Positions 24,114 through 31,696 of a DNA stretch of 64,000 bases are shown here, piece by piece. Numbering within the stretch: the stretch's first letter is position 1; every line of letters begins with the position of its first letter. Source of the DNA: a virus (lineage: Duplodnaviria; Heunggongvirae; Uroviricota; Caudoviricetes); the IMG/VR virus record IMGVR_UViG_2974538492_000001, positions 64,001 to 128,000 of that record; one strand, 5' to 3'. The notes below the pieces were generated by a model. The model had not been told where the DNA came from and searched no databases. It was given only the letters and a program-made list of their open reading frames with translations. The position numbers were made by a program, and so were the translations under genes.

Positions 24114-25355
24114 ATGAAAAATAATCACTTAGACAATCTAATTGTCAGACACCTAGCTGGTTCGCAAGCATATGGTACAAGTACTCCAACATCTGATACT
24201 GATTATAGAGGTATTTTTGTTGCTGATAAAGAATTCATTATTACACCATTCTTTAAAGTTAATGAAGTTAATGATGTGTCAGAAGAAGATACCAAGTACT
24301 ATGAACTAAACAATTATATGCAACTTTATTTGACCGCTAATCCAAATATTTTAGAATCTCTTTGGGTAGATGAGTCTGATATTGTTTATAAAAATGAAAT
24401 GTACGATCATCTTCGTGGTGCTCGTTCAGATTTATTATCAACAAAAATGGCATTTACTTATACTGGTTATGCTCACAATCAAGCTAAACGTATGAAGAAT
24501 CACCACACGTGGATGGAAAAAGAACGCACTGGTGTTCGTATTTTACAAGAATTAATTGACCAATATCCATGTGAACAAATGGTTCAATGGGTTGGTGATT
24601 CGTTTCCACCTTACATTATGAATCTAGTTAACCTAGATAAAGCACGTGGTGTTTTGATTAAAGGTATTATTGATTTTGAAAAATTTATGAGAAATGCTTC
24701 ATTACAAATGTTAAGTACTAATACATTAAAACAATATCACTTTGTTAAATTAGTACATAATTATTTTGATCATCAAGTACTTGACCGTGATTTTAACATC
24801 TTAAAATACAATAATGGTTATCAATTAGTTCCTTACGGTGATAATATTTTTGGTTTAGTAGAAAGAAGTGGTGGAAAAACTATTAATTATGATGGTAGTA
24901 TTCATCGTATTGATAGTTCAAATCTTACAATTGAAGAAGTAAAAGAAACTCCTAAATTGATCGTTAAATTCAATAAAGATGAATATGAAAAAAGTAATGA
25001 CAATCGTCATAACTATCATGAATGGAAACAAAACCGAAATGAAGCTCGTTCTGAGTTAGAACAGTTAAATGGTTATGATACAAAACATGCAATGCATGTA
25101 GTAAGATTACTACGTACTGCGGAGGAAGCATTAGAAACTGGTGAAATTCATGTTAAACGTTCAGATGCAGCAGAATTATTAGCTATTAGAAATGGTGCGT
25201 GGAGTTATAATGAAATGATGGAATACTGGAATGAAAAAGATCAGTATATTAGAGAAGTACTATATAAACAATCGGAATTACCAAAGGCACCGGATATTCA
25301 TAAAGCAGCTAAGCTACTAATTGAACTTCGTGAAATCCAATGGTACGGAAAATAA
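24114..25355 (+). CDS. Pol-beta-superfamily nucleotidyltransferase (RlaP/NrdC.11-like) with a large insert
   Basis: AGSQAYGTSTPTSDTDYRGIF, ANPNILE, and YDTKHAMHVVRLL...EEAL motifs. Confidence 0.85.
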   Translation: MKNNHLDNLIVRHLAGSQAYGTSTPTSDTDYRGIFVADKEFIITPFFKVNEVNDVSEEDTKYYELNNYMQLYLTANPNILESLWVDESDIVYKNEMYDHLRGARSDLLSTKMAFTYTGYAHNQAKRMKNHHTWMEKERTGVRILQELIDQYPCEQMVQWVGDSFPPYIMNLVNLDKARGVLIKGIIDFEKFMRNASLQMLSTNTLKQYHFVKLVHNYFDHQVLDRDFNILKYNNGYQLVPYGDNIFGLVERSGGKTINYDGSIHRIDSSNLTIEEVKETPKLIVKFNKDEYEKSNDNRHNYHEWKQNRNEARSELEQLNGYDTKHAMHVVRLLRTAEEALETGEIHVKRSDAAELLAIRNGAWSYNEMMEYWNEKDQYIREVLYKQSELPKAPDIHKAAKLLIELREIQWYGK

Positions 25356-27647: not shown

Positions 27648-27958
27648 GAATATTTAAATTATTTTTAATTGCGATATTCGTTACATTAATGTTAATGATA
27701 ACAGGTTGTAGTACTGTTCCTATTCAAAATAAGCCAATAATAGAACAGCAATCGTTATTACAAAAATGCACAACGGATACCCCAATTCCAACAAATTTTG
27801 TGCTTGACAGCAATGGTAACCAAGTATATAATGGTAAGGAAGTATTCAGAGTACTACGTGAATGGCAAACAGTTTATAATGATTGTGCAGCCCAGCACGA
27901 TGCTCTAGTAGATACTATACTGAAGTTAAATTCAATGAAAGAAGTTACTAAAAATTAA
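27644..27958 (+). CDS. Putative outer-membrane spanin (Rz1-like lipoprotein)
   Basis: Lipobox ITGC; C...P.P and Y.DCAAQHDALV segments. Confidence 0.6.
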   Translation: MRIFKLFLIAIFVTLMLMITGCSTVPIQNKPIIEQQSLLQKCTTDTPIPTNFVLDSNGNQVYNGKEVFRVLREWQTVYNDCAAQHDALVDTILKLNSMKEVTKN

Positions 27959-27968
27959 GGTTAATGCG

Positions 27969-28502
27969 ATGGGTTCAACCTATATAGTACTTAAAGAATA
28001 TCCAGTTCAAACTATTATCAACTTAATTGATGATACTAATAAAATTGAAATTGACGGAATGATAATACCAGTTGATAAAGAAAAAATGCTAGCATTTAAA
28101 AATAGTACTAAATGTTTAACATGTGACATTGAAGCAACTCATTTCTCATTAGAGAAGATAGCTAATTGTACACATGGTTTATATGGTAATTATCATTTTA
28201 ATTTATACGGTTCACGAAATAATAATAAAATATTATTAACAGTAGACCATGCTATATTAGCAAAAAATAATGGTGAACATCATCATACAAATTTTAATAC
28301 TATGTGTGTATCATGTAATAATCGTCGAGGTTCTAAGTTTGAAAATATAGATGACTTTATTACATTTAGTAAACTTAATCCAATTTCAAAGCATATATCT
28401 GATACAATTGCGTATAAAAAGAAGAAAGAACTTTTTGAAAAAACGGTACAAAAATCTCATGTACAATTATATTACAAAAATCGCAATAAAAATCTTGCAT
28501 AA
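27969..28502 (+). CDS. HNH endonuclease-like protein
   Basis: CLTC...LTVDH...N..TMCVSCNNRRG. Confidence 0.7.
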   Translation: MGSTYIVLKEYPVQTIINLIDDTNKIEIDGMIIPVDKEKMLAFKNSTKCLTCDIEATHFSLEKIANCTHGLYGNYHFNLYGSRNNNKILLTVDHAILAKNNGEHHHTNFNTMCVSCNNRRGSKFENIDDFITFSKLNPISKHISDTIAYKKKKELFEKTVQKSHVQLYYKNRNKNLA

Positions 28503-29232: not shown

Positions 29233-29262
29233 ATGAAACACATTAAAAAAATATGGTATAAT
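29233..29262 (+). promoter_or_regulatory. Promoter ATGAAA-18-TATAAT with extended -10 TGG
   Basis: TGGTATAAT at 29254-62; same architecture as at 37664, 43858, 59925 and 62815. Confidence 0.65.
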
Positions 29263-29267
29263 AAGTA

Positions 29268-29735
29268 TGAAGAACCTAAAAATGGTTCTTTATACAATTC
29301 TGATTGATCCGTAATACGGAATAGTTTAATCCTGATCCTATCGAAAAGTAGATGGCAGATGAGTAGTTCAATCAGTACGAGTGCAGAAGAAACCCGTTAG
29401 GAGATGGCATAGTTAGTACCACCCACGGCAATGCGGCACTATAAATACGCCCTTGATATGAGCGTACTAGATAGACATATGAGATGCATACTCACCTATT
29501 AAAAGGGAGATATTCTAAGGAATATCAATAGTATTTGTTGCTGAATTAGCAAGTACTATATGCGAAGGAATGAGAAATCTTCGACCGTTGTATGCGACTG
29601 TAGTAACTGGAAACCGGACAACCCGCCAGTGTTTACTACAAATTTTAGACAATAAAGATCCGTCCAAAATTTGAGTGAAATCTACAAATTCAGAGGTAAG
29701 ACTACCACCGTCAGATATTATTCTGACTTTTTTTT
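29268..29735 (+). ncRNA. Candidate large structured non-coding RNA (~470 nt)
   Basis: No credible ORF; higher GC; bounded by a promoter and a terminator; at least eight local hairpins, e.g. GATATTC/GAATATC, TGTAGTAA-CTGG/CCAG-TTTACTACA, TACGC/GCGTA, AAATTTT-AGAC/GTC-AAAATTT. Confidence 0.55.
29710..29735 (+). terminator. Rho-independent terminator
   Basis: GTCAGA-TATTAT-TCTGAC plus 8 Ts. Confidence 0.75.
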
Positions 29736-29889
29736 CGTTCCCCTTTTGTGGGGGGATGCAAATGGATCAACAAACCCCGTCAGTATTACTAACTAAAAAG
29801 TACTTAAATATAATAATAACTGAATGGAAATTGTTCGAGTTCTTTAGAACGAGAAGAATTGAACATTCTTGACTAACGGAGTTAGGCAA

Positions 29890-30813: not shown

Positions 30814-31218
30814 ATGAATAAATTATATGAATTTTGTTTAGATTGTGGTAGAATGGGTGACTTAACCGGATTGTTTATAGCAACTGAAGATGAACTAAGA
30901 GCACTACAAGGTATGACTATATATTTTGGAGAAGCTCTTGGTAAGCATTCTGAAGTATCGATTGATGATTTTAAATTTGAAGATCATTGCACTGTAAAAT
31001 CAGATGATTCGGAAAAAATTGATTGGTTGATTGGTTTGTTGGGATATACATTATCTGGTTATAACCCATTAGACTATTTTTATATTGAAGAACAAGATGA
31101 ATACAACGAAGGAAAAAATTCCGAAGAAGGTGAAGAAAATCCATATGATGCAACCGAAGAACAAGGAGCACATATTCGTTGGAAATTAGGTTCAGAAGAT
31201 AAAAAAAATGAAGATTAA
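30814..31218 (+). CDS. Hypothetical acidic protein
   Basis: RBS GAGG; DCGRMGDLTGLF motif. Confidence 0.65.
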   Translation: MNKLYEFCLDCGRMGDLTGLFIATEDELRALQGMTIYFGEALGKHSEVSIDDFKFEDHCTVKSDDSEKIDWLIGLLGYTLSGYNPLDYFYIEEQDEYNEGKNSEEGEENPYDATEEQGAHIRWKLGSEDKKNED

Positions 31219-31696
31219 AGATGGATATTTCTTTTTTTGGGGAAATGAAGATTACATGTCAAATTGGCATAAAGCTTCATTTGAGCTAAATGGAATCACT
31301 TTCAACTGTACTGAACAGTACATGATGTATGCTAAAGCAATTGTATTTGATGATATAATTATTGCAAATAAAGTACTTGAAACTAATTCACAATCTAAAC
31401 AAAAAGCATTGGGGAGACAAGTTAGTAACTACGATGATGAAATTTGGAATGAGATTAGATTCGAAATTGTGTATGATGCATGTTTGGCTAAATTTTCACA
31501 GAATGAAAAACTCAAAGAACAACTTCTAAGTACTGGTAATCTACATTTAGTAGAAGCATCACCATACGATAAGATTTGGGGTATTGGTATGAAAGATGAT
31601 CATCCTGATGCAACTAATCCTGAAAAATGGGATGGTTTAAATTTACTTGGGGAAGTACTAATGGTAGTACGTGAACATTTAAGAAAAGAACAATAA
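31208..31696 (+). CDS. NADAR (YbiA-like) ADP-ribosylhydrolase family protein
   Basis: FFFWG...SNWH, CTEQYMMYAKA, KALGRQV, VEASPYDKIWGIG, GLNLLGEVLMVVR. Confidence 0.92.
   Translation: MKIKDGYFFFWGNEDYMSNWHKASFELNGITFNCTEQYMMYAKAIVFDDIIIANKVLETNSQSKQKALGRQVSNYDDEIWNEIRFEIVYDACLAKFSQNEKLKEQLLSTGNLHLVEASPYDKIWGIGMKDDHPDATNPEKWDGLNLLGEVLMVVREHLRKEQ

Follow-up and report, generated by a model that had tools for sequence, protein, structure and literature searches.

A large pseudoknotted RNA family of 350-kb jumbo phages and chromosomal islands, probably a variant of the RNA-primed replication origin

Comparative analysis strongly supports the existence of a real, uncatalogued family of large structured RNAs, predicted to be transcribed from the plus strand, in 350-kb jumbo phages whose hosts include E. 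coli, Salmonella, Klebsiella, Serratia, and Erwinia, and the element that encodes this undescribed RNA is probably a variant of the RNA-primed replication origin. The copy considered here lies on the plus strand at positions 29234-29889 of the window, the 64,000-nt stretch of DNA that was analyzed, which corresponds to bases 64001-128000 of the 354-kb genome of a Serratia-BF-like jumbo phage (IMG/VR record IMGVR_UViG_2974538492_000001). A literature search found no paper describing this element, and in the public records inspected it is either unannotated or bears just tiny hypothetical ORFs.

A covarying RNA fold in the largest ORF-free gap

A preliminary description of the window had proposed that its largest ORF-free stretch, said to be richer in GC than the surrounding DNA, holds a non-coding RNA extending from a promoter to a terminator (29268-29735), a shorter interval than the one reported here. 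The gap (29233-29868; 636 nt) is the biggest in the window, its GC content of 37.8%, compared with 25.6 and 26.8% in the flanks, falls within the top 3.5% among windows of the same size, it folds better than shuffled sequences (z = -3.9), and a promoter is indeed present at the start of the element. Serratia phage BF and the Erwinia SNUABM phages share 92% identity with this region of the window and GAP32 and CBB share 82-87%, with Munch, EJP2, XaC1, Asteriusvirus, and RaK2 as more distant kin. Neighboring genes encode an RlaP-type nucleotidyltransferase (24114-25355), a weakly matching HNH protein (27969-28502), and a NADAR-domain protein (31208-31696), and no conserved link was found between the element and any of the three. 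A perfect (12/12) sigma-70 consensus promoter also lies nearby, at 27804-27832, within a spanin-like gene.

Homolog collection and a search for covariation had been named as checks on the proposed RNA, and the roughly 96 non-redundant copies recovered display strong compensatory covariation. Within this set of 96 sequences (mean identity 64%), 73% of the 60 pairs with the highest mutual information are standard base pairs, compared with 7% in the background. Counts made on two tool-made alignments, one per half of the RNA, are biased toward the proposed fold because that fold was derived from the same sequences, yet they record many changes among several pair types: 95.7% of cells are paired in the 3' half, with 440 double changes vs. 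132 in shuffles, and 90.8% in the 5' half, with 289 vs. 82. Pairing reaches 99-100% in the pseudoknot helices of the 3' core and falls to 30-45% in slid controls. Five crossing helices appear in the pair counts and a sixth, between the loop of the 29446-66 hairpin and approximately 29499-501, in the mutual-information scan alone; these pseudoknots had escaped the preliminary description, as had the genome's four other copies. The abundance of G-U pairs suggests that the plus strand is the one read into RNA. One hairpin of the 3' core, with a GATCCGTC-type loop, is movable, occurring at one of two sites (34 and 33 copies), at both (11), or at neither (18).

Several stems of the preliminary description survive this analysis. 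The pairings CCGT/ACGG, TACGC/GCGTA, and CTGG/CCAG, together with the hairpin at 29528-59, are borne out by the covariation counts, while GATA/TATC and CGAAG/CTTCG are recovered by the mutual-information scan. Two require correction: the hairpin at 29528-59, originally written ATAGTA-TTGCT/AGCAA-TACTAT, is real, but its inner TTGCT/AGCAA portion is partly wrong and its loop pairs with a distant segment, and the TGTAG at 29599-603 does form a stem, but with the distal CTACA, the proximal CTACA being absent from most copies. Covariation, together with the missing coding signal, lends strong support to the claim of a new large structured RNA; the 3' boundary originally assigned to it is wrong. 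With regard to coding, of 1908 indels only 502 have a length divisible by three, the longest plus-strand ORF has a median length of 36 amino acids, and, with no conserved reading frame, a cluster of small ORFs was rejected as an explanation.

Rfam searches at gathering and E-value thresholds returned nothing, with ribozyme models unmatched at E-values up to 10 and the other copies at E-values up to 1, and neither Rfam nor ARAGORN identified a tmRNA, RNase P RNA, group I or II intron, or self-cleaving ribozyme; short resemblances to group I introns and to RNase P were dropped, Rfam covering both. A match to ctRNA was sub-threshold (E = 0.15). Although the element shares a large covarying pseudoknotted fold with ROOL, GOLLD, and OLE, their Rfam covariance models do not match it. 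Assignment to the retron and DRT RNAs was rejected as no cognate reverse transcriptase (RVT_1) was found in the phage genome or among the island proteins scanned, and assignment to the Y RNAs as no Ro60 (TROVE) partner was found. The related jumbo phage PA5oct produces ORF-free transcripts designated ncRNA001-004 (PMC7318152); these are not homologous, the model of the present family detecting no member in that genome (best E = 0.09).

The promoter and the region beyond the supposed terminator

The features of the window copy are collected in Table 1. The promoter belongs to a class with the consensus TG(A/G)AAC-N14-17-TGnTATAAT, for which the 354-kb genome has 34 plus-strand sites and no minus-strand site (those in the window include 29234, 37665, 59926, and 62816), and which is kept in several copies carried by chromosomal islands. 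It resembles a T4 middle promoter in which the upstream box is a different one. No minus-strand consensus promoter that might direct an RNA I-like antisense transcript was seen within the element. The first hairpin of the preliminary description is present, though without conservation in the mutual-information scan, and where it takes a terminator-like form it may insulate the RNA from upstream read-through.

Table 1. Features of the window copy (window positions; x, crossing pairing).
Feature	Position	Strand	Remarks
Phage promoter: TGAAAC box and extended -10 TGGTATAAT	29234..29262	+	Class found on all five genome copies
5' hairpin, not conserved	29265..29295	+	Terminator-like in some copies
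5' RNA domain, with invariant AAGGGA (29503-08)	29296..29509	+	Covariation
Pseudoknot, 5' domain	29300-07 x 29368-75	+	Covariation
Hairpin with GAAA(N)GUA loop	29338-55	+	5' domain
Helices, 5' domain	29380-84/29436-40 and 29394-97/29425-28	+	
Second pseudoknot, 5' domain	29431-33 x 29476-78	+	
Hairpin with loop pairing	29446-66, loop x about 29499-501	+	Loop pairing in most copies; mutual-information scan alone
3' RNA core	29510..29700	+	Covariation
Hairpin with loop pseudoknot	29528-59, loop 29541-46 x 29688-93	+	3' core
Pseudoknot, 3' core	29587-91 x 29618-22	+	
Long-range helix	29599-603/29682-86	+	3' core
Hairpin	29606-30	+	3' core
Movable GATCCGTC hairpin	29639-73	+	3' core
Direct repeat R1	29701..29714	+	5-nt core equals R2 core in 106/114 copies
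Optional terminator-like hairpin and U-tract	29710..29735	+	52/114 copies; 3' end in the preliminary description
C-run/G6-ATG hairpin (G6 at 29750-55)	29738..29758	+	Invariant alignment columns
Direct repeat R2	29770..29783	+	
Tail: long imperfect hairpin, then C-GGA-G triloop hairpin (29873-85)	29822..29889	+	DNA fold z = -4.0

A terminator-like hairpin does exist where the RNA was first thought to end, but the conserved element continues to approximately 29785 and a structured tail to 29889. A U-rich tract follows R1 in 87 of 114 copies, and hairpin plus U-tract are present in 52. Beyond it, a run of 5-7 G residues is found in 109 of the 114 copies at a median distance of 502 nt from the promoter, and the hairpin containing this run is a candidate site of R-loop nucleation. 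The cores of R1 and R2 change in step in four lineage variants (one R1 position is often G where R2 has C or T; 35/106), and since this co-change is by identity rather than complementarity it suggests a common partner, be it the template strand, a shared RNA arm, or a protein.

Downstream of the G run, at a distance of 30-200 nt, C-GNA-G triloop hairpins on the same strand occur in 92 of 109 copies, with 138 observed vs. about 12 expected (a roughly twelve-fold excess) and at most 26 of any other triloop type. The middle base of the loop is free and the stems covary; in the window copy the triloop also lies across the probable ribosome-binding site of the gene that follows. GNA triloops form a very stable fold in single-stranded DNA, whereas in RNA their stability is unremarkable. 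A longer version of the motif is found on the plus strand of five phage genomes at 17 sites, 12 of them no more than 200 nt from an element, and has a single occurrence each in ColE1 (position 1331, ~150 nt beyond its G6) and phiX174 (position 2355, F-G intergenic), positions that we assign to the PriA primosome assembly regions. By analogy, the triloop of the tail is a candidate loading signal for a primosome or primase on single-stranded DNA, of the kind described for primosome assembly and ColE1 priming (PMC3167613; PMC5778457).

Copies in phage genomes and chromosomal islands

All five copies in the source genome are on the plus strand, at about 24.5, 93.3, 174.2, 260.4, and 334.7 kb. Five copies are likewise present in BF, GAP32, CBB, Munch, EJP2, XaC1, and Hallingskeid, four in PBECO4, and three in RaK2, always co-oriented within a genome and, in eight of nine genomes, spaced more evenly than random (P of the coefficient of variation of gaps, 0.0001-0.02). 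Synteny across most genera holds for three sites, one of which is missing from RaK2, while extra copies occupy lineage-specific sites in the remaining large arc, and the clustering of XaC1 or PBECO4 copies within their own genome in the tree suggests exchange between paralogs. Among metagenomes, a distant group of T4-like jumbo phages with 42% GC (loci L157, L162, L172, L199, L205, L215, L216, and L233) has the same 3' half joined to a different 5' half. A survey of 401 genomes of the order found no copy apart from the center genome, and a search of 72,556 plasmids yielded chance matches alone.

The flanks found are protein genes and not tRNA clusters. The next gene frequently runs toward the element (in about 30 of 103 phage copies, according to a crude ORF call, and in four of six islands), with the 175-kb site of many phages among the cases, and the element is therefore not a leader. 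The sole long block of minus-strand genes, from 130 to 172 kb, ends beside the third copy (~174 kb), such that genes mostly point away from this copy on both sides.

Skew at synonymous sites varies in phase with the copies. In plus-strand genes, the AT skew of four-fold degenerate sites is about -0.12 after a copy and approximately -0.02 before the next in all five intervals of the source genome, and four-fold purine content drops at copies and climbs toward the next in 19 of 22 intervals across the source genome, PBECO4, RaK2, XaC1, and Munch (rotation P = 0.010-0.072), five genomes that are not independent because they are largely syntenic. Local steps at the copies are negative in 20 of 22 cases, no such step accompanies other promoters of the same class, and the skew persists when amino-acid content and one expression index are corrected for. 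The pattern is confounded, in that it also fits codon adaptation: codons just downstream of copies are better adapted (CGT, GGT, and ACT up; AGA and ATA down), rare codons vary in phase, and Leu and Val codons show no shift in phase with the copies. Within orthologs the effect is half as large (P = 0.08, in an underpowered comparison), minus-strand genes present no significant mirror of the skew, and in RaK2 the drop persists at the endonuclease VII site, where this phage has no copy; a hidden copy predicted there was searched for and not found. The skew links the elements to genome organization in cis, and alone is no proof of replication. Each of these five genomes contains 850-1356 occurrences of the palindrome AGTACT vs. 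about 118 predicted by base composition (7-11-fold); as a cause of the skew it was rejected, showing no gradient relative to the elements.

Outside phages, nine chromosomal islands each carry one full copy, a recombinase gene, and a resolvase. The islands with full-length copies are of low GC content, are found in Citrobacter, Silvania, Buttiauxella, Enterobacter, Serratia, and E. coli, and their copies occupy at least three positions in the tree. In most, a serine or tyrosine integrase adjoins the element, most also encode a cI/Ner pair, and two are flanked by long direct repeats. Cargo is variable and often defensive (DarT, GmrSD, Hachiman, AbiGi). No recognizable Rep or primase was found among the island backbone proteins scanned, the helicases belonging to cargo operons.

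Proposed RNA-primed initiation and alternative readings

Given copies that are co-oriented and evenly spaced, a triloop tail, a layout resembling that of ColE1, a phage-encoded RNase HI (E = 2e-35), islands that carry a copy with no recognizable Rep, and the phase of the skew, we incline to the view that the copies are multiple RNA-primed, ColE1-like replication origins. An origin or primer RNA was the second option of the preliminary description, and it is now better supported than a free RNA of the ROOL/GOLLD type. Transcription from the phage-class promoter would yield an RNA of ~500 nt whose compact, pseudoknotted fold, known from covariation, might keep its 3' part on the template around G6 and R2 as an R-loop, with R1 possibly pairing with the template at R2. 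Cleavage by the phage RNase HI, or termination at the U-tract, could then provide a 3' end for a polymerase, and extension would displace the plus strand, on which the GNA-triloop hairpins, a motif shared with ColE1 and phiX174, may load a helicase or primase. With three to five spaced copies, a 350-kb genome could start replication at several points. Against such a scheme, about half of the copies have a terminator upstream of G6, which must be bypassed by the polymerase or put to some other use, and the phage yielded no family A polymerase.

Similarity to ColE1/pMB1 (RNA II, RNase HI, Pol I, and n'-pas/ssiA; PMC3167613) lies in the order of parts: a promoter, a folded RNA of ~500-550 nt, G6 near its 3' end, a GNA-triloop motif downstream on the same strand, and, in the small elements, no recognizable Rep protein. 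The phage RNA differs in that it has five or six pseudoknots, that neither RNA I nor Rop was seen, and that it is multi-copy in a lytic jumbo phage and was not found on plasmids. A short resemblance to RNA II did not hold up as homology: the profile HMM score is within the range of shuffles (rank 149 among 301 sequences scored), and no covariance-model match was obtained at E-values up to 10. T4, to which these phages are related, has several dispersed origins (oriF, oriG) that use middle-type promoters and R-loops, but these consist of a promoter and an unwinding element and lack a conserved RNA fold, unlike the large covarying RNA described here.

That the RNA instead acts in trans, as a scaffold, cage, or protein sponge of the ROOL, GOLLD, or OLE kind kept in multiple copies for dosage and used by islands as a decoy or sensor, is in our judgment unlikely, though it deserves weight. 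Its size, dense pseudoknots with invariant loops, association with phages, own promoter, and, in 52 of 114 copies, terminator would suit such a role, as would the often defensive cargo of the islands, and abundant phage ncRNAs without a known role do exist (PMC7318152; PMC7567579). Yet a trans-acting RNA leaves unexplained the even dispersal and uniform orientation of the three to five copies, the phase of the skew, and the conservation, past the terminator, of G6, R2, and a DNA-like triloop tail, and the element is flanked by protein genes rather than tRNA clusters.

It is improbable that the element is a cis-acting transcription element, such as a processive antiterminator or expression hub driving downstream gene blocks of ~70 kb. 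Co-orientation with the main gene strand, the spacing of copies, the better-adapted codons just downstream, and the terminator inside many copies accord with it, whereas a first downstream gene that is convergent in four of six islands and, for many phages, at the 175-kb site, and triloops of a DNA type do not; put and EAR elements, moreover, are far smaller. Equally improbable is another DNA-metabolism site marked by an R-loop (for packaging, recombination, or genome anchoring) or a ribozyme of uncharacterized chemistry, for while the dispersed but fixed positions of the copies, their capture by islands, hints that paralogs have exchanged sequence, and invariant unpaired nucleotides are compatible with these, there is no Rfam ribozyme match, intron context, or reverse transcriptase.

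To our knowledge, almost no large ornate bacterial RNA has a known function, and a literature search found no description of how these 350-kb phages start replication. Were the RNA-primed origin reading true, the family would be a second one of RNA primers, with no detectable relation to ColE1, and would give a function to a giant knotted RNA and establish a class of Rep-free satellites; were it false, a new and well-supported family of large RNAs with unusual multi-copy biology would still stand.

The broader proposal, that Rak2/GAP32/121Q-like phages use three to five spaced origins primed by a pseudoknotted ~500-nt RNA unrelated to RNA II, and that chromosomal satellites without Rep have repeatedly stolen this origin for replication during helper infection, is a tentative one, which we consider possible but somewhat short of probable. 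In the RNA-primed origin reading as well, small integrative islands would have taken a copy as a Rep-free replicon, possibly firing solely during infection by the helper phage. Such islands would resemble the PLE satellites of ICP1 in the succession of an integrase and a non-coding region, in lacking capsid genes, and in a putative dependence on a lytic phage, whereas PLE has its own RepA (PMC7567579) and the islands have none recognizable. One capsid-less sister island (G179) lacks the RNA and instead carries a YonV-like, superfamily-2 helicase-like gene (L404:14096-15463) followed by a hairpin-rich non-coding stretch with a phiX-like motif and a modest enrichment of triloops. As a single case, this swap of the RNA for a helicase module is only suggestive; the YonV-like helicase and its hairpin-rich stretch are a candidate new replication module. 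In the cargo of two islands (L280 and L281), an operon encodes a UvrD-like helicase, DarT, and an ADP-ribosylglycohydrolase, of which PADLOC matches parts alone.
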